The notes under the pieces: generated by a model | The model's input: only the letters and a program-made list of their open reading frames with translations | Told to the model about the DNA's origin: nothing | Databases searched by the model: none | Shown here: piece after piece, positions 93 to 18,433 of the stretch | Numbering within the stretch: position 1 is the first letter of the stretch | How the letters are laid out: the number at the start of each line of letters is the position of its first letter | Assembly (NCBI GenBank): GCA_041586955.1 | Contig: JBFGZE010000060.1 | Span: 1-21,049, forward strand | Direction: 5' to 3' | DNA: 21,049 nt | From: Bacteriovoracaceae bacterium | Lineage (GTDB): Bacteria; Bdellovibrionota; Bacteriovoracia; Bacteriovoracales; Bacteriovoracaceae | Position numbers and translations under genes: made by a program

Positions 93-725
93 CTACATAT
101 TTTGGAAAAGGCGATCTCCGGCATCACCAATGCCAGGTAAAAGGTAACCATTGTCGTTAAGGCCTTCCTCTTTATTAAGAGCATAAACTTTGACATCAGG
201 ATGAAAGTGGTGAAGTTTTTCTAGGCCTTGACCACTCACTAAGATAGACATCATTGTGATTTTGCCGACATTATATTGCTTAAGACGATCGATACAGGCA
301 ATGGCGGTATCTCCGGTCGCTAAGAGAGGGTCTAGTAAAATGATATCTTTCTTTTCTTGGGTCTCTGGCAATTTAAAATAATACTCAACGGTATTTTTAA
401 TAAACTTATCACGATAAATGCCAATATGACCTGCATTGGCGTTGGGGATCGCCTGTAAAACACCATCAAGCATACCGTTACCAGCACGCATCACAGAGAC
501 CACCAGTGGAGAATTTTTAATAAAGTTGGCAGGAGTGGCGCAAAGAGGTGTCTCAATGTTTTTGGTCTCTAATTCTAAATCTTCTGTCACATAGAGCGCC
601 AAATGCATGGCAACTTCATTCATTAAGCGGCGAAACTCTCGCGCTTGAGTACTTTTATTCCGCATCATACTTAACTTATGCGTTAAAACAGGATGGTTAA
701 CTTGAATATATTGCTTATCTGTCAT
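93..725 (-). CDS. upp: Uracil phosphoribosyltransferase
   Basis: 210 aa; HPVLTHKLSMMR, IETPL, VMRAGNGM, GHIGIYRD, PRPP loop LLDPLLATGDT, C-terminal GYLLPGIGDAGDRLF. Confidence 0.96.
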   Translation of the reverse strand: MTDKQYIQVNHPVLTHKLSMMRNKSTQAREFRRLMNEVAMHLALYVTEDLELETKNIETPLCATPANFIKNSPLVVSVMRAGNGMLDGVLQAIPNANAGHIGIYRDKFIKNTVEYYFKLPETQEKKDIILLDPLLATGDTAIACIDRLKQYNVGKITMMSILVSGQGLEKLHHFHPDVKVYALNKEEGLNDNGYLLPGIGDAGDRLFQNM

Positions 726-737
726 TTACGACTCCTT

Positions 738-1940
738 TTAAAAAACTGTACCGTCACTGGCCAATTGAATGGGGGGCGAACTTAATTCACAACGTTTTTT
801 CGCCAACCGGCGGCCGGCCCACCATGTTCCCCCTTCTAGCATTTTCGCTAGAGGGAATTCTTCTTCAGACTTACCTAACTTCTCACGAATAAGAGGTGCC
901 ATTTTATCAAGAAACACTAAAGTCAATGCACGCCATTCAATAATCAGAGCGCTATCTGGCCTATGGCGCTCATTGATCAGCGTCTGGTCCTTGAGAGAAA
1001 TAAGTCCACTATCAAGTAGTAATCCTCCATTGCGATATTCAGCAAGTCCCGTCAAGAGGTTGACTCCAATAACATCAATCCCTGCTTCTTCAATAGGTTC
1101 GATTAAAGAGTACGTAAGCCATTGAGAAAGTTTATGAAACACAATAAGTTCTTTCTCTCCACTTGGTAATGCGTACTCCCAAATATCACCAAGACTCACA
1201 CCCTTTATCTCAAGACGACTTGGCCAAATTCCGCCAAAGTATTTAAGAACAAAGCGCAGAAGGTCTGTGGCATGGATACTTTCCCCATCAGGGGCCAGAA
1301 AATCCAGAAGATCACCTGGGCGACCGTTAGGAAAAATATTTGGTTGTGCCGCGAGAACTTTCCCCAATGATTGCAGTAATTGGGTACGCCCCTCAACTCC
1401 AATCAAAGGATTAGATTCTGTTATTTGAAAACCTTGAATCAAGTCATCAACACTAAAGTCCTGTAAGTGTTTCGCCTGAACGCTAAAATTTGGGCCAAAC
1501 TTAGAGTCGACAAACATATGATAACTGGCAACCGCTAAACCTTCAGAGCGCTCGATACGACTCCCTGTCGATTGTTCCTGGTATGACCATTCATTGCCCG
1601 CTCCTGCGTCAAGAAGTACTGAGACCAATGCCAAATCAATCTTCGCCTTGGCCTTCTCCCGCGCATCAAAACCAGTAATTAAATGATCAAATTGCTTTTC
1701 ACGATCCACACCACCGGCACGAAAATGGCCCCAGCGAGAGTGAAAAGGAATCTCATAAGTCGGGTAATTATCTTTGATCACTTCTAAAACGTAATCTGTC
1801 ACTTCGTCTAATTTCTCAGGATGGAGATCAAAATGAGTCCCTCCCTTTTGGGCCATTTTATAAATTATTTGCGTCTTATCGCGAATCGCTTGAGGCGATA
1901 GCAGATAATCCACTAATTCATCGTCAAACTTCACTTTCAT
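738..1940 (-). CDS. urc4: URC4/Urg3-family protein (DUF1688), uracil catabolism
   Basis: 400 aa; IPFHSRWGHF, VSVLLDAGAG, RSEGLAVAS, FHKLSQWLTYSL, LTGLAEYRNGGL, LEGGTW, C-terminal SDGTVF. 4-nt ATGA overlap with the upstream gene. Confidence 0.92.
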   Translation of the reverse strand: MKVKFDDELVDYLLSPQAIRDKTQIIYKMAQKGGTHFDLHPEKLDEVTDYVLEVIKDNYPTYEIPFHSRWGHFRAGGVDREKQFDHLITGFDAREKAKAKIDLALVSVLLDAGAGNEWSYQEQSTGSRIERSEGLAVASYHMFVDSKFGPNFSVQAKHLQDFSVDDLIQGFQITESNPLIGVEGRTQLLQSLGKVLAAQPNIFPNGRPGDLLDFLAPDGESIHATDLLRFVLKYFGGIWPSRLEIKGVSLGDIWEYALPSGEKELIVFHKLSQWLTYSLIEPIEEAGIDVIGVNLLTGLAEYRNGGLLLDSGLISLKDQTLINERHRPDSALIIEWRALTLVFLDKMAPLIREKLGKSEEEFPLAKMLEGGTWWAGRRLAKKRCELSSPPIQLASDGTVF

Positions 1941-3196
1941 TCCTCTAACTCCCTACCGACAACATTATCAAGGTCTTCACCAGCACGAACTTCTCCGTCG
2001 GTAAAATAACCAGCGGCCTTTTTGGCCTCCATTTCAACCTGAGCGTCAGCAGGAATTAAATAGTCGGGAATAGAGCAACGATTAACAACTTCAATGCCAC
2101 TATTAACGATGGAGTCATATTTCATATTGCTCATAGAATGGAGATTATGAATTTTTTTAATGCCAAAATACTGAAGAATGTCAGGCATAAATTCTTGAAA
2201 ACGAGCGTCCTCAACACCAGCGACACATTCAGTACGCTTAAAATAAGTGGCCGCAGAATCACCACCAACTTGTCTCTTACGCGCATTATAAACGAGGAAC
2301 TTTGTCACTTCACCAAGGGCACGCCCCTCTTTTCTAAAGTAAACAATAATCCCAACGCCGCCATTCTGGGCGGTTTTCGCCGCTTCCTCAATGCCGCAGG
2401 TCAGGTATGGGCGACAGGTGCAGATATCGGAACCAAAAACATCAGAGCCATTGCATTCATCGTGAACACGACAAGTTAATTCCACTTCAGGATTGCGAAG
2501 ATCATTCACATCGCCAAAGATATAGGCCGTTGAGGAACCAATTGGTGGTAAGAAAACTTTTAAGTCTGGCCGTGTGACCAATTCAGGAAACATTCCCCCT
2601 GTTTCATTAAAAAGAATCTTACGCAATTCACCTTCATCGATATTTAATCTTTTGGCGATTCCTGGTAAATGCCAAACGGGTTCAAACGCCAATTTAGTTA
2701 CTTTGATATCTTTTTCTTTGGTCACGATTTTGCCGTCTACTTTCAAACGACCTTTTTCAATCGCCTCGTAAAGCTCTGGAATCTGAAGACGAGCTTGAGT
2801 CACAGCAATCGAGGGTTTAATATTGATCCCTTTATCTAAATAATCCTTAAAGACCTCTTGGACATGCCCTCCCCATGGATCGATGGAAACAATCTTGCAT
2901 GGATCAAACCATGAGTCAGCAGGAGATATTGTAATAGGGGCCTCTGTGTTATTGAGGTCAGGGTGGTGATCAGTTTTAAAATCACCTTTTGCGATAGAAA
3001 GTGCACGGTAAACGGTATAGGAGCCACTATGAGTACCGATAGCATTACGGTTTTCTTTTTCAGAAATCGTCGCAATAATTGGCCCTCTGGCCTGTGGATC
3101 TTTTGCACCCCATTCAATTGGAAGGGATTCTTTAAAAACTTGATTCTTATGCGATGTTAAAATCACATGTGACGAGCGCTTTAATTCATTCGACAT
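1937..3196 (-). CDS. urc1: URC1/Urg1-type GTP cyclohydrolase II-like protein (N-terminal extension plus GCH II domain), uracil/UMP catabolism
   Basis: 419 aa; N-terminal WGAKDPQARGPI and RNAIGTHSGSY of the Urc1 subfamily; zinc motif RVHDECNGSDVFGSDICTC; YFRKEGRALG. Adjacent to urc4 and upp. Confidence 0.9.
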   Translation of the reverse strand: MSNELKRSSHVILTSHKNQVFKESLPIEWGAKDPQARGPIIATISEKENRNAIGTHSGSYTVYRALSIAKGDFKTDHHPDLNNTEAPITISPADSWFDPCKIVSIDPWGGHVQEVFKDYLDKGINIKPSIAVTQARLQIPELYEAIEKGRLKVDGKIVTKEKDIKVTKLAFEPVWHLPGIAKRLNIDEGELRKILFNETGGMFPELVTRPDLKVFLPPIGSSTAYIFGDVNDLRNPEVELTCRVHDECNGSDVFGSDICTCRPYLTCGIEEAAKTAQNGGVGIIVYFRKEGRALGEVTKFLVYNARKRQVGGDSAATYFKRTECVAGVEDARFQEFMPDILQYFGIKKIHNLHSMSNMKYDSIVNSGIEVVNRCSIPDYLIPADAQVEMEAKKAAGYFTDGEVRAGEDLDNVVGRELEE

Positions 3197-3214
3197 TATA
3201 TTCTCCTTTCAGGA

Positions 3215-4693
3215 CTAACTCATCCAATTGGCATCAGATTGCATTTGCCATTTCGTTGTTATTTTTTTGACATCTGACCAGAAATCTAAGCTATGAAGTC
3301 CGGTGATATCACCATGGCCAAATTTTGAATCATTGACCCCTCCAAAAGAAAAAGGTTCTCTTGGAACAGGCACCCCAATATTAATGCCAACCATTCCGGC
3401 ATTGGCCATATTAGCGATCATTTCCGCCATCGCTCCGTTTGAGGTAAAGACGGAACAGGCATTGCCATATTCATTATCATTTTCAACGGCCATCGCTTCG
3501 GTAATATTTTGGCAACGAACAATACTCATAACCGGGCCAAATAATTCAACCGTTGCGGCAAAGCTTCCAGGTTTAACATTATCTAAAATAGTGGGGCCAA
3601 TCCAATGTCCGTCAGCAAAGTCTCCGCCAGGGTTTTGGTTACGCCCATCTAATAAAAGAGTCGCACCTTCGGCCAATGCTTTATCAATCGCTTCGTTAAG
3701 AAAGCTCACCTGCTCAGCAGTAATAATGGCACCCATTTTATCGCAAAGAGTAGTCGCCTCAGCGCGCTCTTTAATTTTTTGGATTTGCGCTTCAACATTG
3801 CCGACCGCTAATAGCACACTGGCGGCCATACAGCGTTGACCAGCACAACCCGTAAAGGAATCGGCAATCCCCTGCCCGGCGATAGCAGGATCAGCATCGG
3901 GAAGAAGGACGATATGGTTTTTCGCCCCACCTAAACAAAGAGCTCTTTTACCATTTTGGGAAGCGCGAGAATAAACGATTTTAGCCACTTTAGTTGAGCC
4001 GACAAATCCAACCGCCTTCACATCTTTATTATCAATAAGGGCGTTAACAGTCTCAGCTCCCCCTTGAACGACGGTAAGAACACCATCAGGAAGGCCTGCG
4101 TCCTTTAAGCAATTGGCAATGGCCATACTAGTCAGTGGTGTTTTTTCCGAAGGTTTCCAAACATAGCAATTACCGAGGGTAATCGCGATGGGAATAGTCC
4201 ACATAGGAACCATCGCCGGAAAGTTAAAGGGAGTAATAGAAGCGACAACCCCTAAAGGCCTGCGTCTATATTCACAAAAAACGCCGCGAGAGACTTCCAT
4301 GCGGCCGCCGAGATCAAGGTTTTGGATACTTAAAGCAAATTCCAGAACTTCAATCCCTTTCAAAATACCGGCCTTAGACTCCCCTAAGGTTTTCCCATTT
4401 TCACTACTGATTAAATGGGAGATTTCTTCAATTCGCTCATATAATAATTCGCGAAATTTAAACATAATTTGCGTGCGCTCCTTAATAGGAGTGCTCTTCC
4501 ACTTGGGAAAAGCTTCTTGAGCACGGGTGACGGCCAGGTCAACATCATTGCTGGTTGAATGATGGAATAGACCGATTGTTTGTCCCGTTAAAGGGCTTAT
4601 CACAAATTCCTCAGCACCAGTTGCTGGAATCCATTTTCCCTGAACAAAGTTTTGACAATTAATATGCTCACTCGGTAGACGAATGGAGGTCAT
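3215..4693 (-). CDS. mmsA: CoA-acylating (methyl)malonate-semialdehyde dehydrogenase
   Basis: 492 aa ALDH with ITPFNFPAMVPMW, KPSEK, FVGST, GGAKNH, catalytic CAGQRCMA and GMVGINIGVPVP, all typical of the MmsA/IolA subfamily. AAGGAG RBS at 4707-4702. Confidence 0.92.
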   Translation of the reverse strand: MTSIRLPSEHINCQNFVQGKWIPATGAEEFVISPLTGQTIGLFHHSTSNDVDLAVTRAQEAFPKWKSTPIKERTQIMFKFRELLYERIEEISHLISSENGKTLGESKAGILKGIEVLEFALSIQNLDLGGRMEVSRGVFCEYRRRPLGVVASITPFNFPAMVPMWTIPIAITLGNCYVWKPSEKTPLTSMAIANCLKDAGLPDGVLTVVQGGAETVNALIDNKDVKAVGFVGSTKVAKIVYSRASQNGKRALCLGGAKNHIVLLPDADPAIAGQGIADSFTGCAGQRCMAASVLLAVGNVEAQIQKIKERAEATTLCDKMGAIITAEQVSFLNEAIDKALAEGATLLLDGRNQNPGGDFADGHWIGPTILDNVKPGSFAATVELFGPVMSIVRCQNITEAMAVENDNEYGNACSVFTSNGAMAEMIANMANAGMVGINIGVPVPREPFSFGGVNDSKFGHGDITGLHSLDFWSDVKKITTKWQMQSDANWMS

Positions 4694-8608: not shown

Positions 8609-10600
8609 TTGAAAACACTACCATTATTGATCTTCATTTTACTTTTTACGCTCGGCTGTTCTGGGAAAAAGAATAGCTCCAAAGCGATGTTTAATATTAT
8701 CTCATTAGGTCATTTAACCTCTGCTGATTATTCTGGGGGGATGATGCTCTATGGAAAGAATCACGATGATGGGGCCGCTTTTTCTCGTATATTATCGTCC
8801 GAAGCTGACTTTTCGTTCCCCCTGGACAATGGACATTATGACTTTCATATCATCATGTGGGATGGAGCTTCCGGTCATTTTACGGGGGATGCTTTTTGCG
8901 GGAACATCCAAGGCATCATTTTAAACGGTGGTGAGACACCGATTAATATCTATATGTCGAAAGAAAGATGCGCTAATCAATTGGTCAATGGCGCTTCTGT
9001 ATCAATCAATGGCAATAATGATCTGGCGCAATTAGATTTTAGAAGTTGTACTGACAATGCGTTGGCAGCGATTATAACTTTTTCCCCGAATGACTGTACC
9101 AATGGAAATGCCGGTGACATTCAATCTTTTAAAATTTCACTTCTTGAATACCAAGGGGATAAGAGTTCAGTGAACGATTACCTCACCAGTGAATGTATTT
9201 CAAGCTTTGACGGCACAGGTCTGCGCTTTCCCACAGGTAATGGTGCCAATCAATTCTTCGCGACAAAACTGCAGTATTTCTCGGATACTTCCTGTGGCAG
9301 TTCATTGGCCAATGTGATTTACCCTAACTCTTTGTCCAATCCAGCGAACCCAAATGACACCTCACTATTCTATAATTCAGCGGGAACAAATTATCTTCTC
9401 TTTGATGATATCGGTCTCCCCGGTAGTGCGGCCCAAGGACCGTCTCCATTCGTCTCCACCTGGCAAACCACCACTGCTGCGGAAAGTATCACCCTGCCTC
9501 TGCGTAGTGGGTACAATTATAATTTTACCGTTGACTGGGGAGATGGTTCCCCTGCTGATACGGTCACTTCAGATACAGACCTCGACAAGACTCATACTTA
9601 CGCCAGCCCTGGAACCTATAACGTCTCCATTACCGGTACCGTAGAGGCGTGGTTTTTTAATAATAGTGGCGATAAAGATAAGATTATTTCTGTAACGGAC
9701 CTTGGGGATATGGGTTGGCTCAACCTTGAAAATGCTTTTTGGGGCTGCTCTAATATGACTTCGTTTGCTGGTGGTAATACGGCCAATGTCACGAGCATGG
9801 GAAGCATGTTCCGTCAGGCCACCCTCTTAAACTCGCTGGATCTTTCCAGCTTTGATACCGCCTTGGTCACCGATATGGGCTCTATGTTTAAGGATTCCCC
9901 CGCTCTTACTTCCCTGGATTTATCCGGCTTTGATACCAGCAGTGTCATTAATATGAGTGCGATGTTTTTAAATGCCTCCGGACTATCCAATTTGAACCTC
10001 TCTGGCCTCAACACCGCCAATGTCAACACAATGCAATGGATGTTTCAGGGGGCTTCCAGTTTAACCTCGTTGGATCTATCAAGCTTTAATACCTCTAGTG
10101 TCACCGATATGAGCTTTATGTTTCGCGATGCCTCTAGCTTAACCTCACTGGATTTATCCGGTTTTAATACCACAAATGTCACTAAAATGAACTGGATGTT
10201 TTATAATGCCTCCAACTTACCCTCGTTGGATCTATCAATCTTTGATACCTCTAGTGTCACCGATATGAGCTTTATGTTTTATGGCACCACCAGTTTGAAC
10301 TCCCTGGATCTCTCCAGTTTTAATACCGCAAATGTCACCACTATGCAGAGTATGTTTTATAGTGCCTCCAGCTTGGCCAGCATGAATCTCTCTCATTTTA
10401 ATACAACCAGTGTCACCAATATGAGCAATATGTTTCGCAGCACAGCTTCATTAACGGCCCTGGACACCACCGGATGGGATATTTCTTCTGCCGGCACCAG
10501 CACCGATGTCTTCACAGGAGCAAACATCGGTCTTAGTGTCAGCTGTGATCAGGGTGGTCTCCCCGGCACCGGAAGTTTCTTTGGTAAAACCTGCTATTAA
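8609..10600 (+). CDS. BspA-family / DUF285 surface lipoprotein with a PKD-like domain
   Basis: 663 aa; lipobox-like FTLG-C; Cys-rich N-terminal region; PFVSTWQTT..YNFTVDWGDGS..HTYASPGTYNVSITG (PKD-like); nine 26-aa DUF285-type repeats. Confidence 0.88.
   Translation: MKTLPLLIFILLFTLGCSGKKNSSKAMFNIISLGHLTSADYSGGMMLYGKNHDDGAAFSRILSSEADFSFPLDNGHYDFHIIMWDGASGHFTGDAFCGNIQGIILNGGETPINIYMSKERCANQLVNGASVSINGNNDLAQLDFRSCTDNALAAIITFSPNDCTNGNAGDIQSFKISLLEYQGDKSSVNDYLTSECISSFDGTGLRFPTGNGANQFFATKLQYFSDTSCGSSLANVIYPNSLSNPANPNDTSLFYNSAGTNYLLFDDIGLPGSAAQGPSPFVSTWQTTTAAESITLPLRSGYNYNFTVDWGDGSPADTVTSDTDLDKTHTYASPGTYNVSITGTVEAWFFNNSGDKDKIISVTDLGDMGWLNLENAFWGCSNMTSFAGGNTANVTSMGSMFRQATLLNSLDLSSFDTALVTDMGSMFKDSPALTSLDLSGFDTSSVINMSAMFLNASGLSNLNLSGLNTANVNTMQWMFQGASSLTSLDLSSFNTSSVTDMSFMFRDASSLTSLDLSGFNTTNVTKMNWMFYNASNLPSLDLSIFDTSSVTDMSFMFYGTTSLNSLDLSSFNTANVTTMQSMFYSASSLASMNLSHFNTTSVTNMSNMFRSTASLTALDTTGWDISSAGTSTDVFTGANIGLSVSCDQGGLPGTGSFFGKTCY
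9776..10477 (+). repeat. Nine tandem 78-bp (26-aa) coding repeats, DUF285/BspA leucine-rich type
   Basis: Consensus [N/D]TsnVTdMsxMFxxAssLtSLDLSxF repeated in frame nine times. Confidence 0.9.
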
Positions 10601-10723
10601 AATCGGATCCCCAAAAAAGAATTGATAGGCCTCTCATGTCTTTAGTAGAAGTCCCTTATGACACAAGGCAACCAACACAATAAATCAGAAACTGATCTGC
10701 GATAATACGGCAGAGCATAAAAT

Positions 10724-10752
10724 TTGCTTCTTAATGATTTCTAAGCAAGAAT
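10724..10752 (+). promoter_or_regulatory. Possible sigma70-like promoter/operator of the hppD-paa operon
   Basis: TTGCTT-N17-AAGAAT, overlapped by the inverted repeat TTGCTT(10724-10729)...AAGCAA(10743-10748). Confidence 0.35.
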
Positions 10753-10799
10753 ATGGCCCTAAATAACAAATCAACTAATTGTTTATGAAGAGGCCCATC

Positions 10800-11867
10800 A
10801 TGACCACTCAAATCAATCCAGAAAACCCCTTGGGTATCAAGGCAATTGACCATTTAGAATTCTGTTGCGACCAATTAGATACACCGACTAAAGAATTATT
10901 TTATACGTTTGGTTTTGCTAAAACTTTTAGTAATGACCAAGAAGAATTATTTACCCAAGGGCAAGTGCGCTTTCTCCTATCGGCGAAAAAAGATGGCCAT
11001 GCCCGCCAATATTTTAACAAGCACGGCGAAGGTGTCAGTACTCTATCCTTTCTGGTTGAAGATGTGGGCCACGCTCTCAAGGAGGCCCGAACTCGAGGAG
11101 CAGAAGTCTTGCAAGAAGTCCAAATGGTAGAGAGCAAGCATGGCGTTTATAAGACCGCCCGTATTCAAGGCTTTGGTGATGTTCAAAATGAATTTGTCGA
11201 GCGACCCATGGCCCATTTCCGCCCCGAACTCAAATCCCTGGCCCTTGACTCCAAGGCGCGTCCCCTCGCCTCTCGCGTCGCACGTATTGATCACCTCACC
11301 AATAATGTGCCGAAAGGAGAAATGGATCAATGGGTGGATTTCTATAAACGTATTTTTGGTTTTAAAGAAACTCGATACTTTGATATCAAAGGCGTTAAAA
11401 CTGGCCTGCAATCAAAAGTGGTACAATTGCCAAATGGAGTGGTGATCATTCCTATTAATGAACCCGAGGCCAAAGATGGAAAATCACAGATCCAGGAATT
11501 CCTCGACCTCCATAAAGGCGCTGGCGTTCAGCATATTGCCCTGACCTGCTCTAATATTATTGAAACAGTAAAGGACCTAAGACAACGAGATATTAAATTT
11601 CTCGATATCCCCGCGACCTATTATGAAGATATTCCCAAACGAAATTTCAAAGTGGAAGAGGACCTCAAAGTTTTAGAGGACACTCAATTATTAGTTGATG
11701 GTGACCCCGAAGGCTACCTCATTCAAAACTTTACTCAAACCTATATTGGCCCACTTTTCTTTGAGTTTATTCAAAGGAAAAACCATAATGGCTTTGGAGA
11801 AGGAAATTTCCAGGCACTCTTTGATGCCATCGAACGCGACCAAGTCAAACGCGGCTATTTGGAGTAA
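10800..11867 (+). CDS. hppD: 4-hydroxyphenylpyruvate dioxygenase
   Basis: ENPLGIKAIDHLEF, Fe ligands in IDHLTNNV / GVQHIA / FFEFIQRK, and GFGEGNFQALFDAIERDQ. Start taken at ATG 10800 (GAGG RBS) rather than TTG 10779. Confidence 0.95.
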   Translation: MTTQINPENPLGIKAIDHLEFCCDQLDTPTKELFYTFGFAKTFSNDQEELFTQGQVRFLLSAKKDGHARQYFNKHGEGVSTLSFLVEDVGHALKEARTRGAEVLQEVQMVESKHGVYKTARIQGFGDVQNEFVERPMAHFRPELKSLALDSKARPLASRVARIDHLTNNVPKGEMDQWVDFYKRIFGFKETRYFDIKGVKTGLQSKVVQLPNGVVIIPINEPEAKDGKSQIQEFLDLHKGAGVQHIALTCSNIIETVKDLRQRDIKFLDIPATYYEDIPKRNFKVEEDLKVLEDTQLLVDGDPEGYLIQNFTQTYIGPLFFEFIQRKNHNGFGEGNFQALFDAIERDQVKRGYLE

Positions 11868-11869
11868 TT

Positions 11870-12649
11870 ATGGAAACCATCATCGTTGAAAAACATTGGC
11901 GCGATAACCAGCACCTCACTTTGATTCGCATCAATCGTCCCAAGGTGCTCAACGCTCTCAATAATACGGTCATGCAAGAGATTGTTCAGACACTTGAAGA
12001 ATTAGAGAAGGCCAATGATCATTATCTGACAATCCTCACTGGTGATGACCGCGCTTTCGCCGCTGGTGCAGATATCGCCAGTATGAAAGATGACTCGGCG
12101 GTGGACCAATACCTCGGCACACGCGCCCAATTATGGAAACGCTTTAACCTTATTCGCAAACCTATTATCGCTGCCGTTAATGGCCTTTGCCTAGGCGGTG
12201 GTAATGAATTGGCGATGGCCTGTGATCTTATTATTGCCGGAGATCAGGCGAAGTTTGGCCAGCCAGAAATCAAATTAGGACTTATGCCCGGTGCCGGTGG
12301 TACCCAACGCTTAGTCAAGGCGATTGGTAAAGCACGGGCCATGCGCTTATGCCTTACCGGTGAAATGATTAACGCCGAGACTGCTTTTTCGTGGGGTCTT
12401 TTATCAAAAGTTGTTCCTGCCAATACCTTATTGCAAGAAACTTTTGAGATGGCAAAAAGCATTTGTCAGCAGCCCCCCCTCGCCGGCCGCATGATCAAAG
12501 AAAGTGTCAACCATAGCTTTGAATCTTCTTTGGCCCAAGGCCTAGATTTTGAACGCCGACTTTTTTATTTAACCTTTGCCACTCAAGATCAAAAAGAAGG
12601 AATCAATGCCTTTCTTGAAAAACGCCAACCCCAATTTAAAGGACAATAG
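11870..12649 (+). CDS. paaF: Enoyl-CoA hydratase, PaaF-like (2,3-dehydroadipyl-CoA hydratase)
   Basis: Crotonase fold: NRPKVLNALN, FAAGADI, GGGNELAMACD, QPEIKLG, PGAGGTQRL; paa context. Confidence 0.85.
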   Translation: METIIVEKHWRDNQHLTLIRINRPKVLNALNNTVMQEIVQTLEELEKANDHYLTILTGDDRAFAAGADIASMKDDSAVDQYLGTRAQLWKRFNLIRKPIIAAVNGLCLGGGNELAMACDLIIAGDQAKFGQPEIKLGLMPGAGGTQRLVKAIGKARAMRLCLTGEMINAETAFSWGLLSKVVPANTLLQETFEMAKSICQQPPLAGRMIKESVNHSFESSLAQGLDFERRLFYLTFATQDQKEGINAFLEKRQPQFKGQ

Positions 12650-13438
12650 ATGAGCGATTACCAATGGATTCAAGTGGAGCTCCAGGGCGCGACACAAATC
12701 ATCACGATCAATAGACCCGACGTCTATAACGCCCTTAATAAAGATTCGAAAATCGAAATCATACGAGCAATCCGTCAGGCCAATAAAAATAATGAGGTCC
12801 GCTCTATCATACTAACTGGCAATGGCAAGGCCTTTTGTACCGGCCAGGACCTAAACGACCGCTCAATTTCTAGCGATGAAGGCCCAGTTGACCTTGGTAA
12901 AACATTAGAAACCGAATGGAATCCTCTGATCAACGCTATCCGCGATTCCAAAAAAATTATGATTGGCGCCATTAATGGTGTCTGCGCTGGCGCCGGTCTT
13001 TCCGTTGCCTTGGCCTGTGACATAATCCTCGCCAAAGAAGGCAGTCAATTTATTAGTGCCTTTTCTAAATTGGGCCTGGCCCCGGATGCCGGCAGCTCCT
13101 ATATCTTTGTGCGCCAAATAGGCTATCACCGCACCTTAGAATTCTTCCTCCTCAACCACCCCCTTCTGGCCGAGGAAATGGAAAAATCAGGACTTATCAA
13201 CCGCGCCTGTAGCGAACCCCTGACTGAGGCCTTAGAATATGCCGAGAAAATTAATCAATTGGCGCCTTTATCCACTGAGTCAATCAAGAGCAATTTATTA
13301 AAGGCCCAGGATGTCAACTTTGAACAAAGTATGCTAAATGAAACCTACACCCAGCGCTTTCTCAGTAATAGCGCGGACTATCAAGAGGGGCTCAAGGCCT
13401 TTTTTGAAAAAAGACCACCTCAATTTGGTGGCCATTAA
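12650..13438 (+). CDS. paaG: Ring-1,2-epoxyphenylacetyl-CoA isomerase, PaaG-like
   Basis: Crotonase fold with FCTGQDL, GAGLSVALACD and GLAPDAG (PaaG-type Asp, lacks the hydratase Glu pair); follows paaF. Confidence 0.85.
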   Translation: MSDYQWIQVELQGATQIITINRPDVYNALNKDSKIEIIRAIRQANKNNEVRSIILTGNGKAFCTGQDLNDRSISSDEGPVDLGKTLETEWNPLINAIRDSKKIMIGAINGVCAGAGLSVALACDIILAKEGSQFISAFSKLGLAPDAGSSYIFVRQIGYHRTLEFFLLNHPLLAEEMEKSGLINRACSEPLTEALEYAEKINQLAPLSTESIKSNLLKAQDVNFEQSMLNETYTQRFLSNSADYQEGLKAFFEKRPPQFGGH

Positions 13439-13471
13439 ATAAAATCATTAAATGCTTGAGGAGACAATGAT

Positions 13472-14281
13472 ATGGCAACACAAGAATACAGTGCAGAAGA
13501 ATTACAATTATTCCAAGACATTAAAAATGGAAAAACTTTTGATAAAGGTGAAGAACTTCCTGCCATCTACAAAAAAAATCTCATTAATTTATTGTGGATG
13601 CAAGGTGACTCCGAATATTCAGGTGCCCTTGGTTATATGCCCTGGATTGAGAAGGCTCCTAGCGTTCAGGAAAAATTATTAGTCGCACAAATCGTCAAAG
13701 ATGAAATGCGCCACGCCTCTGTCATTTACCGTATGCTTAATGAATTAGGCGAGAATCCAGAAGATCATGTGAAAAAAGTAGACCTAGGTTTTAAACTAGA
13801 AGAAGATGAAATCAATATTGGCTTTAAAAGAGTAAAAGACGATTACCGTGTCAATATCTTCTATTATAATATTAAATATTGGACAGACTTTATCCTTTTC
13901 AATTTTCTTATGGATCGCGCTGCTGGTCACCAATTGGAAGACACCCTCGATTCAAGCTACCTTCCCTGGAAAAAAGGGATTGAAGGAATTTACAAAGAGG
14001 AAGTCATGCACCTCACCCATGGAGATAAATGGGTCAAGATTCTTGCCAAAGATCCAAAAGATAAAGAATTTCTTCAAGAAAGACTGAACCTTTGGTGGCC
14101 TCGTGTTATGAATGTCTTTGGTAAATCAAAAGGTGGCGCTAATAGTATCTACGTCAACTTAGGTCTCAAACGCCGCAATAACGATGTCGTTCGCAAAATC
14201 TTTGTCGACGAAATCCAAACACTTTGTGATGAAGTTGGCCTTATTGTTCCTGAGTGGAATGAAAGCGATTACTTAAACTAA
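13472..14281 (+). CDS. paaA: PaaA-like ferritin-fold di-iron aryl-CoA epoxidase/monooxygenase (PaaA/PaaC family)
   Basis: 269 aa; YKKNLINLL..QGDSEYSG, WIEKAP, DEMRH, MDRAA..QL, SSYLPW, EEVMHLTHG, WWPRVMNVFG; GAGGAG RBS. Confidence 0.75.
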   Translation: MATQEYSAEELQLFQDIKNGKTFDKGEELPAIYKKNLINLLWMQGDSEYSGALGYMPWIEKAPSVQEKLLVAQIVKDEMRHASVIYRMLNELGENPEDHVKKVDLGFKLEEDEINIGFKRVKDDYRVNIFYYNIKYWTDFILFNFLMDRAAGHQLEDTLDSSYLPWKKGIEGIYKEEVMHLTHGDKWVKILAKDPKDKEFLQERLNLWWPRVMNVFGKSKGGANSIYVNLGLKRRNNDVVRKIFVDEIQTLCDEVGLIVPEWNESDYLN

Positions 14282-14297
14282 ACCTCTAGGAGTTTCC

Positions 14298-15155
14298 ATG
14301 GATATCAATTCCGCGGCAATAATCGGCGCGGGCACCATGGGTAGTGGTATCGCCCAATGGATGGCCCAAGCTGGTTGCCAGGTATTTCTTTGCGACGCAT
14401 TTCCCGAGCAGGCGGATAAGGCCTTAACGCTTATTCATGCCTCGTGGGATAAATTATTAAGCAAAAAAAAATTTAGCGCCGATCAAATTAAAAACTTCAA
14501 AGAACACTTATCCATTGGTGAGATTGAAAGCATTCCCACCACAACGGACTTAGTGATTGAAGCAATCATTGAGCGTGAAGATATTAAACAAGAGCTCTTC
14601 CAAAAATTGGATCAGCAATTGCCAGCGTCGACCATTTTCGCCAGCAATACGAGCAGTATCCCTATTGACCGCTTAGCGCTTAATTTTTCCAAAGAGCGTA
14701 AGGCGCGCTTTTTAGGGATTCACTTTTTTAACCCTGCCACCATTATGAAATTAGTGGAGCTGATTAAAGGGACTCATACCGATGAGGGCCTAATCAACGG
14801 TCTCTATCAATGGTTTGATTCTAAGGCCAAAATTCCCGCCATTTGCCAGGACTCACCAGGCTTTATCGTCAATCGCGTGGCCCGTAGTTTTTATGGGGAA
14901 TCCTTGCGCATCGTCAATCATTTGGACCGAGATTTGGTGGCCAAAACAGATAAGGTATTAAGAGAAGTTGGCGGCTTTAAAATGGGCCCTTTTGAGTTAA
15001 TGGACCTGATTGGTATCGACGTTAATTATTCAGTGACCGAATCAGTGTGGAAATCATTTTATCACGACCCACGTTTTGCCCCCCATCCTCTCCAAAGAAA
15101 GATGGTAGAATCTGGCCTTATTGGTAAAAAGGCAGAGGGAGGATTTTATGAGTGA
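14298..15155 (+). CDS. paaH: 3-hydroxyacyl(adipyl)-CoA dehydrogenase, NAD-binding/catalytic half of PaaH
   Basis: GAGTMGSGIA, EAIIE, ASNTSS, GIHFFNPA, DSPGFIVNR, MGPFELMDLIGIDVN. Confidence 0.9.
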   Translation: MDINSAAIIGAGTMGSGIAQWMAQAGCQVFLCDAFPEQADKALTLIHASWDKLLSKKKFSADQIKNFKEHLSIGEIESIPTTTDLVIEAIIEREDIKQELFQKLDQQLPASTIFASNTSSIPIDRLALNFSKERKARFLGIHFFNPATIMKLVELIKGTHTDEGLINGLYQWFDSKAKIPAICQDSPGFIVNRVARSFYGESLRIVNHLDRDLVAKTDKVLREVGGFKMGPFELMDLIGIDVNYSVTESVWKSFYHDPRFAPHPLQRKMVESGLIGKKAEGGFYE

Positions 15156-15822
15156 AAACCCAATCATCGTTCTTGCCACAAAAAATCACCCCCTTTATGA
15201 AGATCTAAAAAAGGCCTCTGTCATGTTCTGTGATCCAGAACTAGAAGAGCCCTTTGAACGCAAAAGAGGTAATTACCTCAAAGCGCAGGCGATCTTAGAC
15301 TTTACCCTGCAATCATCGGATAAAAAAGAAGCGCTCATCCGCTACCTCAGTATGGAGTTTCAAGCGCCTATTATCAGTGACCTGACGCTTTATTGGGGCG
15401 AAAAATTATTCGTCAAATACCCCAACCTAAAAGGAGCGATTGGTGCGGCCTTTTATTCGCCAAAAAATTGTTATGAGTTTTTTAGTCAAAACCAAGAATT
15501 GACAGATCTTATGGCAAAGGTGATGGGCGAGATTGGCCATCAAATTATATCTGTCGATCGGCCAGGCCTGGGATTTACCTATCCACGAGTCATTAGCATG
15601 ATAATCAATGAGGCCTATATCGCCAAAGATGATCGCCTCGCGAGTGAAGATGATATTGACCGTGCCATGAAGTTCGGTGTGAATTATCCACTAGGCCCTT
15701 TTGCCTGGGCCAGAGAAATTGGTACCTGGAAAATCGTTCATCTTTTGGATGAATTATTTAAAGTCTACCAAGACCCACGCTATCGAGTGGCCCCGTCTCT
15801 GCGACTAGAGGCCTTTCAATAA
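15148..15822 (+). CDS. 3-hydroxyacyl-CoA dehydrogenase C-terminal-domain protein (second half of a split PaaH)
   Basis: ATG at 15148 with GGAGG RBS, overlapping the paaH stop; PGL..PRVISMIINEA, DIDRAMKFGVNYPLGPF, YQDPRYR. Confidence 0.85.
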   Translation: MSENPIIVLATKNHPLYEDLKKASVMFCDPELEEPFERKRGNYLKAQAILDFTLQSSDKKEALIRYLSMEFQAPIISDLTLYWGEKLFVKYPNLKGAIGAAFYSPKNCYEFFSQNQELTDLMAKVMGEIGHQIISVDRPGLGFTYPRVISMIINEAYIAKDDRLASEDDIDRAMKFGVNYPLGPFAWAREIGTWKIVHLLDELFKVYQDPRYRVAPSLRLEAFQ

Positions 15823-15833
15823 AGGAATAAATC

Positions 15834-17033
15834 ATGAAGCCAAGTTATATTATTTACGCCAAAAGAACACCTCTTGGAAAAATCGGAGGACTTCTTGCCC
15901 CGGTGAGAGTCGACGATCTAATGGCCCATCTTATTAGTGACTTTAAAGATCAAATGACCTTTGACCCTAAAGAAATTGATGACGTGATGGTGGGCTGTGC
16001 CAACCAAGCAGGAGAAGATAACCGCAATGTCGCGCGTATGAGCTCCCTTTTGGGCGGACTTCCCTTTGAAGTCCCAGGCACCACGTTGAATCGTCTTTGT
16101 GGCTCTTCTCTTGATGCCGCCATGGGCGCCGCCGCTCGCATTTCTTCAGGACTGGCCGATTGTATCGTGGTGGGTGGATGCGAATCCATGACCAGAGGCC
16201 CTTTAGTCCTCTCCAAAGCATCAACAGCATTTGGCCGTGACTCAAAAATGTATGATACTACTTTTGGTTGGCGCTTTCCCAACCCTAAGATGAAAGAACT
16301 CTTCCCGCTCTTTGGCATGGGAGAAACTGCCGAAGAAGTCGCTGAATTGCTTAATATCTCACGCCAGGATCAAGATGCCTATGCTTTGAATAGTCATCAA
16401 AAAGCGACTAAGGCATGGGATAGCGGGGCCTTCAAGGACGAAATCGTCCCGATCGAAGTCAAACTCAGGAAAACAAATTATATTGTCGACCGCGATGAAG
16501 GGCCAAGGCCCGATACCAGTCTTGAAAAATTGGCCAAACTCAGACCGGCCTTCCGCCAGGGAGGTAGTGTCACGGCCGGAAACTCCAGTATGATGAACGA
16601 TGGAGCCGCTTTAGTCGTCATTGTCAGTGAAGAGTTCCTCAAAAAGCATAACCTCACTCCGATGGTGGCCATTGAGGCCGCTGCTGTTCGCGGTGTTCAT
16701 CCCAATACCATGGGACTAGGCCCAGTCGAGGCGACCCGTACCCTATGCCACCGCTTTGGAAAAAAAGTCTCCGATTTTGATGTCATTGAATTAAATGAGG
16801 CCTTTTCCGCGCAATCGCTTGGTTGTATTCGCCAATTAGATTTAGATCCCAATAAAATTAACTTAAACGGCGGAGCAATCGCGATTGGCCATCCTCTAGG
16901 ATGCTCTGGTGCACGTATCCTCACTACTCTAACTCATATTATGGCGAAAAATGCCAATTACAAACAAGGCCTCGCCACAATGTGTATTGGCGTTGGTCAA
17001 GGGATTGCCCTGTCTGTAAGGAATTGTCGTTGA
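15834..17033 (+). CDS. paaJ: 3-oxoadipyl-CoA / 3-oxo-5,6-dehydrosuberyl-CoA thiolase (PaaJ/PcaF type)
   Basis: GCANQAGEDNRNVARM, NRLCGSS, DTTFGWRFPN, NEAF, GHPLGCSG, MCIGVGQG. Confidence 0.92.
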   Translation: MKPSYIIYAKRTPLGKIGGLLAPVRVDDLMAHLISDFKDQMTFDPKEIDDVMVGCANQAGEDNRNVARMSSLLGGLPFEVPGTTLNRLCGSSLDAAMGAAARISSGLADCIVVGGCESMTRGPLVLSKASTAFGRDSKMYDTTFGWRFPNPKMKELFPLFGMGETAEEVAELLNISRQDQDAYALNSHQKATKAWDSGAFKDEIVPIEVKLRKTNYIVDRDEGPRPDTSLEKLAKLRPAFRQGGSVTAGNSSMMNDGAALVVIVSEEFLKKHNLTPMVAIEAAAVRGVHPNTMGLGPVEATRTLCHRFGKKVSDFDVIELNEAFSAQSLGCIRQLDLDPNKINLNGGAIAIGHPLGCSGARILTTLTHIMAKNANYKQGLATMCIGVGQGIALSVRNCR

Positions 17034-17461
17034 GCTCCCAGCTAGAAAAAGGACCTATCATTGTCTCCGCCTGTTTAGCGGGTATTAATTGTCGCTATGA
17101 TTGCGCTGCCAAATCAGCACCCGATATCGTCAAAATGGTAGAAGAAGGCCTGGCCATTCCCCTCTGCCCAGAGCAATTAGGAGGCTTACCCACGCCCCGT
17201 CCACCGGCCGAACAAATTGGCGATAAAGTCATCACCATTGATGGAGTTGATGTCACCGCTCAATACCAAAAAGGTGTGGAGGAGGCAATTAAAGTTGTTG
17301 AGATGACGGCGGCCAAAAAGGTTTACCTCAAATCAAAATCCCCTATGTGCGGGGTCGGCCAAATTTATGATGGGACGTTCAAAGGCCAATTAAAACCAGG
17401 AGAGGGTTTATTCGCGCGCGCCTTAAAAAAGCTCGGCGTTATGATCGAAGAAGTTGATTAA
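17030..17461 (+). CDS. DUF523 / TudS-family (2-thiouracil desulfurase-like) Fe-S protein
   Basis: SACLAGINCRYD, CPEQLGGLPTPRPPAE, KSKSPMCG, GEGLFA. True start likely TTG 17030 (TTGA overlap with the paaJ stop, AAGGA RBS), 143 aa. Confidence 0.85.
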   Translation: MSSQLEKGPIIVSACLAGINCRYDCAAKSAPDIVKMVEEGLAIPLCPEQLGGLPTPRPPAEQIGDKVITIDGVDVTAQYQKGVEEAIKVVEMTAAKKVYLKSKSPMCGVGQIYDGTFKGQLKPGEGLFARALKKLGVMIEEVD

Positions 17462-17467
17462 CAACCA

Positions 17468-17503
17468 CTTTGTCCTTTATCATTTTAAGGACAAAGGATT
17501 TTT
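17468..17503 (+). terminator. Probable intrinsic terminator of the hppD-paa operon, overlapping the mscS RBS
   Basis: CTTTGTCCTT(17468-17477)/AAGGACAAAG(17487-17496) stem followed by GATTTTT. Confidence 0.55.
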
Positions 17504-18310
17504 ATGAAACTTGGGCCCCAAACTGAACTTGATATCAATATTTTTCTCTCTCTTTTTATTGGCATCACAATATTTATTATCCGCTTCATCACCGTTAAGA
17601 TCATTCATAAAGTCATTGAGGATCGGGAAACAAGACGACGCTATTATGTCCATCTCAATTCATTGATTACTGTCGCCTTCTTTGCCGCGCTAATTATTCT
17701 TTGGTCCAGCCAAATTAAAACATTAACCGTCTCTCTCTTAGTCATCGCAGTCCCCATTGTCTTGGCAGGTAAAGAATTATTTGCCAGCATGGCCGGCGGT
17801 TTTTTAAAATTGACAAGTGGCAGTTTTCAAATCGGAGACCGTATCGAAATAGGGCGCCATCGCGGAGATGTTGTCGGTAAGACCCTTTTAACAACAAAAC
17901 TTTTAGAGATAGGCCCAGGAAAAAAAACCCATCAATATACCGGCCGTAGTATTACCATTCCCAACGCCAATTTTCTCGATCAACCAGTTATTAACGAATC
18001 CTTTCTCAAAAACTTTGTTTTACACCCCTTTGAAATTAATCTCAAACGCGATGAAAATTGGGAAAAGGCACAAAGTCTCTTAATTGAAATCTGTAACCGC
18101 CATTGTGAGGAATATTATGAGCAGGCCCAAATCTATATTGATCGTCTGCAATCGAAGGCCTCCTTACACACTCCTGGAATCCGCCCACGAGTTCATATAA
18201 GACTACCTGACCCCCAGCAAATTCAATTTATCGTTCGAATCACCATACCGGCCGATCTTAAGGGAACCATCGAACAAAAAATTATTACTGATTTTTTACG
18301 TGAGTTTTAA
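17504..18310 (+). CDS. mscS: Small-conductance mechanosensitive channel family protein
   Basis: Three N-terminal hydrophobic helices, FQIGDRIEIG..GDV, TIPNA..L..PVIN. Confidence 0.88.
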   Translation: MKLGPQTELDINIFLSLFIGITIFIIRFITVKIIHKVIEDRETRRRYYVHLNSLITVAFFAALIILWSSQIKTLTVSLLVIAVPIVLAGKELFASMAGGFLKLTSGSFQIGDRIEIGRHRGDVVGKTLLTTKLLEIGPGKKTHQYTGRSITIPNANFLDQPVINESFLKNFVLHPFEINLKRDENWEKAQSLLIEICNRHCEEYYEQAQIYIDRLQSKASLHTPGIRPRVHIRLPDPQQIQFIVRITIPADLKGTIEQKIITDFLREF

Positions 18311-18317
18311 TAAGTTC

Positions 18318-18366
18318 AAAGAAAAACCACATCCTCATAAGCGGGGCAGGCCGATAAGGATGTGGT
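18318..18366 (-). terminator. Intrinsic terminator oriented on the minus strand
   Basis: Minus strand reads ACCACATCCT...AGGATGTGGT followed by TTTTCTTT; 10-bp perfect stem (18326-18335 / 18357-18366). Confidence 0.7.
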
Positions 18367-18433
18367 CCTTATTATCACTACAAAAGTAGCGATAGATCTT
18401 AATGATATGTGAAAACTATTTCTATTTAGCTTC
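18318..18433 (-). ncRNA. Candidate small RNA of about 115 nt
   Basis: Orphan minus-strand terminator; second hairpin TATCGCTAC-TTTT-GTAGTGATA (18373-18394) whose mismatch is a G-U pair only on the minus strand; upstream ATGACC-N17-CATGAT. Ends are approximate. Confidence 0.4.

Follow-up and report, generated by a model that had tools for sequence, protein, structure and literature searches.

We analysed the complete contig C60 (JBFGZE010000060.1, 21,049 nt, hereafter the window) of a marine metagenome-assembled genome (MAG) from the family Bacteriovoracaceae (GCA_041586955.1; 3.46 Mb in 194 contigs, 88% complete, 2% contaminated, 39% G+C). The stretch is present in three DNA runs from one marine-metagenome study and in no listed RNA run. 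Its 19 open reading frames (ORFs) were scanned against Pfam and NCBIfam, and bit scores were compared with the equivalog cut-offs. Seven tightly packed, co-directional ORFs on the + strand (10800-17033) encode a 4-hydroxyphenylpyruvate dioxygenase (HppD), two crotonases (ECH1 and ECH2), a lone PaaA-type diiron protein, a PaaH-like dehydrogenase in two pieces and a thiolase. The gap between hppD and the ECH1 gene is 2 nt and every other intergenic gap is ≤33 nt. The lone PaaA-type protein is a candidate phenylacetyl-CoA epoxidase that would work in the absence of PaaB, PaaC, PaaD and PaaE. The gene content, the 2-nt gap between hppD and the paaF-like gene and the split paaH had been noted in the initial annotation of the window and were borne out here. 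The same is true of the absence of hmgA, fahA, maiA, paaB, paaC, paaD, paaE, paaZ and paaK, for which the 19 ORFs gave no match in Pfam or NCBIfam.

The first gene, hppD (10800-11867), encodes 355 amino acids (aa) from an ATG at 10800 that lies 7-8 nt after the motif AAGAGG; relatives align from residue 1-5 of this form, and a TTG at 10779 provides an alternative start. The product exceeds the equivalog score of TIGR01263 (360 bits, cut-off 277). Its best solved relative, the Pseudomonas HPPD 1cjx, aligns over the full length (211 bits), in agreement with a two-domain VOC fold, and the His/His/Glu motifs align in residues that we take to be the ligands of the iron site. ECH1 (11870-12649; PF00378, 262 bits) is closest to PaaF, the 2,3-dehydroadipyl-CoA hydratase (NF007239, 298 bits versus a cut-off of 371), and ECH2 (12650-13438) to PaaG, the epoxyphenylacetyl-CoA isomerase (TIGR02280, 202 versus 345 bits). 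ECH2 also matches the alternative oxepin-CoA hydrolase model NF046063 (182 bits, cut-off 300). The PaaA-type gene follows at 13472-14281. Downstream of it, the N piece of the PaaH-like 3-hydroxyacyl-CoA dehydrogenase (14298-15155) carries the NAD-binding and the first C domain (PF02737, PF00725; TIGR02279, 282 bits, model positions 7-284 of 503), and the C piece, a separate gene (15148-15822), carries the second 3HCDH_C domain (PF00725, 46 bits; TIGR02279 positions 400-495, 80 bits), the cut-off of TIGR02279 being 669 bits. The last gene encodes a PaaJ/PcaF-like 3-oxoadipyl-CoA thiolase (15834-17033; TIGR02430, 500 versus 597 bits; TIGR01930, 438 versus 241 bits). The PaaG, PaaF, PaaH and PaaJ roles are assigned from gene context. 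A promoter and terminator scan of 10400-18400 was uninformative, with counts inside the shuffle range.

The division of paaH is natural. The ATG of the second gene (15148) overlaps the end of the first by 8 nt (TGA at 15153-15155) and is preceded by GGAGG. Both parts are split in 42 of the 43 related loci that hold them and fused in one, L052 (L-numbers denote related loci and G-numbers family genomes, G000 being the present one). A frameshift was rejected as the cause on the strength of this recurrence and of the junction itself.

The lone PaaA-type protein

The 269-aa product of 13472-14281 is the only PF05138 match in the whole genome (118 bits, cut-off 28.5). On the PaaA equivalog TIGR02156 it reaches 114 bits versus a cut-off of 280, while the canonical PaaA of the relative G060, which matches the window gene by tblastn at 28% identity, scores 533. 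Alignment to 3pvr and 4ii4 places the E. coli PaaA diiron ligands Glu42, Glu72, His75, Asp126, Glu155 and His158, as identified in the accessible part of PMC4498308, at E48, E78, H81, D148, E177 and H180, and Phe108 at F130. All seven positions are at least 90% conserved in an alignment of 49 sequences, in which the canonical PaaC lacks them.

The AlphaFold2 (AF2) model of the protein has a predicted local distance difference test (pLDDT) value of 92.4. Its top Foldseek matches are the PaaA chains 3pwq, 4ii4 and 4iit (TM 0.79-0.80, 26% identity), followed by SSO1313 (TM 0.73), PaaC (0.69) and BoxB (0.62). A two-copy model passed our mark, with a score of 0.79 against 0.00 for the best of three controls, identical contacts in three runs and a partner pLDDT of at least 88. 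The mark was reached by 20 of 30 solved homomers and by 1 of 23 single chains, a calibration that holds only roughly here, our own alignment having been used. The modelled pair suggests that the protein is probably homodimeric.

A search of 1.84 billion cluster representatives returned just 19 at E ≤ 1e-30, and the closest full-length relatives beyond the clade share 47% and 34% identity. The nearest relatives form a large cloud of short, unnamed PaaA-like proteins; a scan of 70 cluster representatives put 9 at or above the cut-off for PaaA and none at or above that for PaaC.

Ring epoxidation by the canonical enzyme requires PaaA, PaaB, PaaC and PaaE, according to the accessible part of PMC4498308. 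A precedent for an aryl-CoA diiron epoxidase without a structural partner is the BoxAB benzoyl-CoA 2,3-epoxidase (Azoarcus evansii BoxB; PDB 3PER, 3PM5), BoxB being described as monomeric in the same portion of that source. BoxB is, however, about 470 aa long, and on TIGR03225 the window protein reaches no more than 24 bits (cut-off 499). SSO1313 from Sulfolobus solfataricus (PDB 4MUD), an uncharacterised stand-alone PaaA/PaaC-like protein, is closer in form, since it belongs to the same Pfam family and is a short ferritin-like protein (phmmer E 2.6e-15), but it is 20% identical to the window protein and has no known function. With F130 kept and a gene context that fits, phenylacetyl-CoA epoxidation by the lone protein is predicted, with the odds somewhat in its favour.

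Pathway genes elsewhere in the genome

The genome encodes a bona fide PaaZ on another contig (C84:9054-11093). It is stand-alone and full-length, has Aldedh and MaoC domains, and scores 969 bits on TIGR02278 (cut-off 563). A second contig, C36, carries an operon-like row of a HisC-type aminotransferase, a FAH-family hydrolase, a 361-aa HmgA-like cupin and a flavin reductase. The HmgA-like protein keeps, in an alignment to human HGD (1ey2), the three positions that we take to be the His/Glu/His Fe ligands. Compared with the homogentisate pathway of Pseudomonas putida and humans (HppD, HmgA, MaiA, FahA), the genome thus holds an HppD above the cut-off and a C36 group with HmgA-like, FAH-family and aminotransferase genes. 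It differs in that the HmgA-like and FAH-family proteins are far below their cut-offs (62 versus 511 bits on TIGR01015, and 75 versus 375 bits, respectively), in that no MaiA exceeds its cut-off in the genome (best glutathione transferase 74 versus 171 bits), and in the presence of a flavin reductase in the cluster. The latter is an unusual partner for a homogentisate dioxygenase. Presence and absence were recorded throughout in a single sample of 60 family genomes with a completeness of 90% or more. In 39 of them a flavin-reductase-domain gene is present, and it always comes directly after the divergent HmgA-like gene (here C36:11406-15287, corresponding to L004 4407-8288).

On a third contig lies the gene for a fused protein of the indolepyruvate:ferredoxin oxidoreductase (IOR) family (1142 aa, C19:11113-14532). 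Its ortholog in L013, 65% identical to this copy, scores 349 bits on NF009589 (cut-off 816) and contains TPP_enzyme_C and POR domains. Enzymes of the IOR family convert arylpyruvates into arylacetyl-CoA, as stated in the accessible part of PMC5109826. The present protein resembles the IOR of Pyrococcus furiosus (IorAB) and Desulfococcus multivorans (IorA3B3) in its TPP, POR and IOR alpha/beta domains and in its predicted conversion of arylpyruvates to arylacetyl-CoA, but it differs in being a single fused chain of about 1140 aa, in occurring in an aerobe and in its pairing with a NUDIX and metallo-beta-lactamase fusion. The latter (C19:16457-17797, about 445 aa) combines NUDIX, metallo-beta-lactamase and winged-helix domains and also lies beside IOR in L063, L064, L065, L066, L071 and L072; speculatively, it could be an acyl-CoA proofreading hydrolase standing in for PaaI. 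Between it and IOR lies a 640-aa protein without Pfam or NCBIfam match (C19:14538-16460), weak relatives of which (29-33% identity) occur near IOR in L019, L029, L030 and L034.

The remaining canonical components were not detected in this 88%-complete MAG: the best match was 20 bits for PaaK (TIGR02155, cut-off 646) and 36 bits for PaaE (TIGR02160, cut-off 421), while PaaB (PF06243) and PaaD (TIGR02159) had no match and no second gene of the PaaA/PaaC family (PF05138), as expected of a PaaC, was found. Searches by tblastn with the canonical PaaB, PaaC, PaaD, PaaE and PaaI of G060 returned nothing from the genome at E ≤ 1e-5, and phenylalanine hydroxylase (PF00351) was not found in the genome either. 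MAG incompleteness was rejected as the cause of the missing paaBCDE and paaK, as near-complete and few-contig relatives show the same PaaB/PaaC gap. One reading offered in the initial annotation was that Tyr and Phe catabolism are simply co-regulated and that other genes for them lie elsewhere. That suggestion stands for PaaZ (C84) and for the HmgA-like and FAH-family genes (C36), and fails for PaaB, PaaC, PaaD, PaaE and PaaK, which were found nowhere in the genome. Because of this lack, and because the PaaB/PaaC gap recurs in near-complete relatives, the pathway appears to be truly minimal and not merely scattered.

Conservation in the family and beyond

Synteny in relatives, which the initial annotation had proposed to examine, was assessed in 42 related loci collected by tblastn around the PaaA-like gene. 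The relatives of this central gene belong to Bacteriovoracaceae and Halobacteriovorax, that is, to predatory Bdellovibrionota. ECH2 immediately precedes the PaaA-like gene in 39 of the 42 loci, and the N part of PaaH is found downstream of it in 39; a thiolase is present in 31, HppD in 28 and ECH1 in 22. HppD is missing from 14 loci, 9 of which are truncated less than about 1 kb upstream of the crotonases, and some of the loci without ECH1 are likewise truncated upstream. Since it is repeated around the PaaA-like gene in these 42 loci, the arrangement is not due to chance. In many relatives the fused IOR gene stands upstream of or beside hppD, often in divergent orientation; in the present genome this link is broken by rearrangement. 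Just upstream of hppD, where relatives have the IOR gene, the window encodes a lipoprotein-like protein of 663 aa (8609-10600, +), which contains eight PARCEL/DUF285 repeats as well as a PKD domain.

Across the 60 genomes, PF05138 is matched in 24: 22 have exactly one match, two matches occur in G006, and those of G060 are a canonical PaaA and a PaaC. PaaB (PF06243) occurs only in G060 and in none of the 22 single-match genomes. Exactly one PF05138 match was also found in each of five genomes checked, including the complete Peredibacter genome. PaaZ is present in 18 genomes, HppD in 46 and the IOR ortholog in 31, and IOR accompanies the PaaA-type gene in 24/24 and PaaZ in 18/18 genomes.

The distribution of phenylalanine hydroxylase (PF00351) is complementary. 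It is found in none of the 11 genomes that combine a lone PaaA-like gene with PaaZ, but in 7 of the 12 in which the lone gene occurs and PaaZ does not. All 17 genomes with HppD but without IOR, a PaaA-type gene or PaaZ possess it; the 12 in which HppD is lacking as well do not. In four of these 17 (G003, G032, G034, G045) the match is divergent, consisting of two weak stretches in ORFs of about 600 aa, whereas the hydroxylase is normally a protein of some 280 aa. The set of IOR, PaaA-like protein and PaaZ is thus found where a hydroxylase route from Phe to Tyr is lacking.

A comparison of two congeners is informative. G060 has a canonical PaaE-A-B-C-D-I-J-Z cluster, with all members above their cut-offs, and in its hppD cluster ECH2 abuts PaaH, the lone PaaA-like gene and the thiolase both being absent. 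In G005 the lone PaaA-like gene sits between ECH2 and PaaH. The comparison ties ECH2 and PaaH to the paa pathway and suggests that the lone protein and PaaABCDE are interchangeable.

A further alternation concerns an aldehyde dehydrogenase (ALDH) gene that follows the thiolase in some loci. All 15 loci with this gene belong to PaaZ-less genomes, and 23 of the 24 without it belong to PaaZ genomes, the one exception being a truncated locus. The pattern resembles the alternation of fused PaaZ and separate ALDH that is already known (accessible part of PMC9007349). In PaaZ-less freshwater relatives a conserved protein of about 430 aa without family match lies between the thiolase and the ALDH (L024:11508-12803, L025, L026, L031, L032, L048, L054), and it is a candidate for the missing function of the PaaZ-less variant.

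The module extends beyond the family. Two Tumebacillus isolates carry, in this order, genes for an EthD-family protein, a PaaG-like crotonase, a lone PaaA-like protein, the PaaH pieces and a thiolase, with no HppD. The lone-PaaA module is likewise found without HppD in alphaproteobacterial MAGs and in one further MAG. An ECH2-type crotonase directly precedes the PaaA-like gene in the Tumebacillus and alphaproteobacterial loci too, and a related PaaA-like gene occurs on a short Chloroflexota contig. The small EthD-family protein precedes the crotonases in freshwater Bacteriovoracaceae as well as in the Tumebacillus and alphaproteobacterial modules (for example L016:6123-6428, L024:5968-6300, L072:10670-10975, L074, L076 and L077), and is absent from the present window.

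These distributions bear on two alternatives to a paa-type function of the operon. The initial annotation had put forward a hybrid route that starts from what HppD makes (homogentisate, or 2-hydroxyphenylacetate from phenylpyruvate); this compound would be activated with CoA and ring-opened by the PaaA-like protein and PaaZ. It had set against this idea the case of complete paa and hmgA sets elsewhere in the genome together with an unconserved hppD linkage; paaBCDE and paaK were not found, and in 20 of 23 genomes the distance between HppD and the PaaA-like gene is no more than 8.3 kb. This linkage and the 2-nt gap to ECH1 speak for the hybrid route, as does locus L068 of G006, where a second HppD is directly followed by a divergent PaaA-like gene. 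That second pair is not conserved, however, as three such loci were found and HppD is adjacent in only one, G006's own record. No CoA ligase or transferase was seen among the annotated cluster genes (10 of the 42 loci), and no PaaK was detected in the genome; the IOR-family enzyme described above is a simpler source of CoA esters. HppD and the module also occur each without the other, as the 17 hydroxylase-bearing genomes and the Tumebacillus and alphaproteobacterial modules illustrate, and HppD keeps company with an HmgA-like gene in 40 of 46 genomes, adjoining it in G045. The hybrid route is therefore unsupported, and we consider it highly improbable.

Alternatively, the crotonases, dehydrogenase and thiolase could form a generic short-chain beta-oxidation or acetoacetyl-CoA module at the ketogenic end of Tyr breakdown, with the PaaA-like gene as a passenger. 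The enzymes do match generic models such as PRK05862, PRK08268 and TIGR01930 while falling below the paa equivalog cut-offs, and the cluster persists without the PaaA-like gene in six genomes (see below). However, the dehydrogenase carries an additional C-terminal domain, as is typical of PaaH, the highest scores of the thiolase are on 3-oxoadipyl-CoA thiolase models, and the cluster lacks an acyl-CoA dehydrogenase. Moreover, PaaZ, which has no role in acetoacetate metabolism, is confined to IOR genomes, and the thiolase missing from the hppD cluster of G060 is found in its canonical paa cluster. We give the generic module a slim chance.

Two features of the flanks deserve mention. After the thiolase lies a gene of the 2-thiouracil desulfurase family (PF04463; 17054-17461, +), a family that also follows the cluster in several marine relatives, such as L013, L019, L030, L037 and L040. 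At the other end of the window (93-4693, -), four adjacent genes encode a uracil phosphoribosyltransferase (upp), a DUF1688 protein, a GTP-cyclohydrolase-II-like protein (PRK07198, 707 bits) and a CoA-acylating methylmalonate/malonate-semialdehyde dehydrogenase. This set resembles the yeast uracil-catabolism genes URC6, URC4 and URC1, and may be a bacterial URC-type cluster for pyrimidine degradation.

Two proposed parallel routes for arylpyruvates

Taken together, gene content, conservation, co-occurrence, conserved metal ligands and fold lead us to propose, with a probability of roughly 0.6, that the operon is a conserved Bacteriovoracaceae system degrading the arylpyruvates from Tyr and Phe by two parallel routes, with the lone PaaA-like protein as epoxidase of the Phe branch. 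The individual enzymatic steps and the substrate of the lone protein, given below, are what we infer from these genes. Prey-derived tyrosine and phenylalanine would be transaminated to the two arylpyruvates. In the Tyr branch, HppD would form homogentisate, and the unlinked HmgA-like dioxygenase and FAH-family hydrolase of C36 would complete its breakdown. In the Phe branch, the fused IOR of C19 would turn phenylpyruvate straight into phenylacetyl-CoA, so that no PaaK ligase would be needed. An enzyme of this family is most simply the source of the CoA ester, competing with HppD for arylpyruvates. The single 269-aa protein would then epoxidise the ring, replacing PaaABC(D)E, ECH2 would act in the PaaG role, and the unlinked PaaZ would open and oxidise the ring. 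Finally, the thiolase, ECH1 and two-piece PaaH would serve as PaaJ, PaaF and PaaH to yield acetyl-CoA and succinyl-CoA. HppD would belong to the operon because substrate pool and regulation are shared, not as a feeder of the CoA pathway.

The operon would accordingly be a variant of the known paa pathway, in a layout common to the family. Like the systems of E. coli K-12 and Pseudomonas sp. Y2 (PaaK, PaaABC(D)E, PaaG, PaaZ, PaaJ, PaaF, PaaH), the genome has a bona fide PaaZ and PaaG-, PaaF-, PaaH- and PaaJ-like genes, and the window diiron protein has the PaaA fold with the six iron ligands and Phe108. It differs in lacking detectable PaaK, PaaB, PaaC, PaaD, PaaE and PaaI, in having one small protein as the oxygenase, and in its two-gene PaaH, unlinked PaaZ and an HppD gene at the head of the operon. 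In the literature covered, to which subscription papers did not belong, we found neither a lone PaaA epoxidase nor this operon described.

Several observations weigh against this proposal. The most serious is that six near-complete genomes (G024, G037, G040, G041, G052, G053) keep IOR, PaaZ and the hppD-crotonase-PaaH(-thiolase) cluster and have no PF05138 match. Three contiguous loci among them show the PaaA-like gene cleanly absent between ECH2 and PaaH, and four of the six lack PF00351 as well. No alternative oxygenase was recognised among the neighbours in these six clusters, and several of those neighbours have no Pfam match. As the cluster architectures of the PaaA-less genomes differ, we infer that the gene was lost several times independently. 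Since these six genomes do without it, the pathway may be able to dispense with the lone protein, or its epoxidase may be another enzyme. Within the protein itself, the lysine bridge of E. coli PaaA (Lys68 with Glu49, Glu72 and Asp126, proposed to transfer electrons in the accessible part of PMC4498308) is absent, Lys68 being replaced by Ile74 and Glu49 by Tyr55. No electron donor candidate was found for the protein, with no ferredoxin gene near the genes checked. The C36 flavin reductase was rejected as its dedicated reductase, as it tracks and adjoins the HmgA-like gene and also occurs in genomes without the PaaA-like gene. The homodimer result may stem from the solved PaaA-PaaC pair having been memorised by the model. 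More generally, ECH1, ECH2, PaaH, the thiolase, the PaaA-like and the HmgA-like protein all fall under their NCBIfam equivalog cut-offs. The ALDH of the PaaZ-less clusters is BADH-like and not of the PacL/PaaZ type, and the PaaZ/ALDH split probably follows one marine/freshwater divergence, with few independent events. The compared genomes are kin, so that counts are non-independent and overstate independence. Finally, the MAG on which the proposal is built is 88% complete.

The six PaaA-less genomes are also an argument for regarding the lone protein as an accessory oxygenase, acting on another IOR-made CoA thioester such as 4-hydroxyphenylacetyl-CoA or indoleacetyl-CoA, while the core of ECH2, PaaH, thiolase and PaaZ operates independently and an unrecognised enzyme attacks the phenyl ring. 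The PaaA equivalog score well below the cut-off, the missing lysine bridge and the cloud of unnamed relatives, few of which reach the PaaA cut-off, point in the same direction. Against it, the loss of the lone gene in G060 coincides with a canonical PaaABCDE set, and the residue that positions the phenylacetyl ring in E. coli PaaA, Phe108, is kept as F130. No other oxygenase recurs in the clusters. Furthermore, because phenylalanine hydroxylase is found in 0/11 genomes with the lone gene and PaaZ, these genomes need a route that deals with the phenyl ring. We therefore hold the accessory role to be unlikely and retain the lone protein as the candidate epoxidase of the Phe branch.

A more specific version of the two-route proposal, which we consider doubtful, would make the lone protein a self-sufficient homodimeric phenylacetyl-CoA epoxidase whose two electrons come from ferredoxin that has been reduced by IOR, its constant companion in these genomes. 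Ring-epoxidised phenylacetyl-CoA would in this way arise from phenylpyruvate, CoA and O2 without NAD(P)H, PaaB, PaaC or PaaE. If so, the absence of the Lys68/Glu49 bridge would be explained by the delivery of electrons from IOR-reduced ferredoxin, and the two enzymes would constitute a redox-coupled entry into the paa pathway.

The hypothesis is directly testable, as cultured carriers of the gene exist (Halobacteriovorax marinus SJ, Bacteriovorax stolpii, Peredibacter and Tumebacillus). If the lone protein does carry out the epoxidation, it would be a far simpler aryl-CoA epoxidase for enzymology and for tropone-type biosynthetic engineering, and the ligase-free entry through IOR would illustrate a way for aerobes to connect amino-acid transamination directly with a CoA pathway. 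The combination of PaaA and PaaC has been put forward as a genomic marker of the paa pathway in a 2026 survey (accessible part of PMC13186573). If a single small PaaA-type protein suffices, the catabolism of phenylalanine and phenylacetate would escape marker-based surveys in an entire predatory family, in Tumebacillus and in other lineages.

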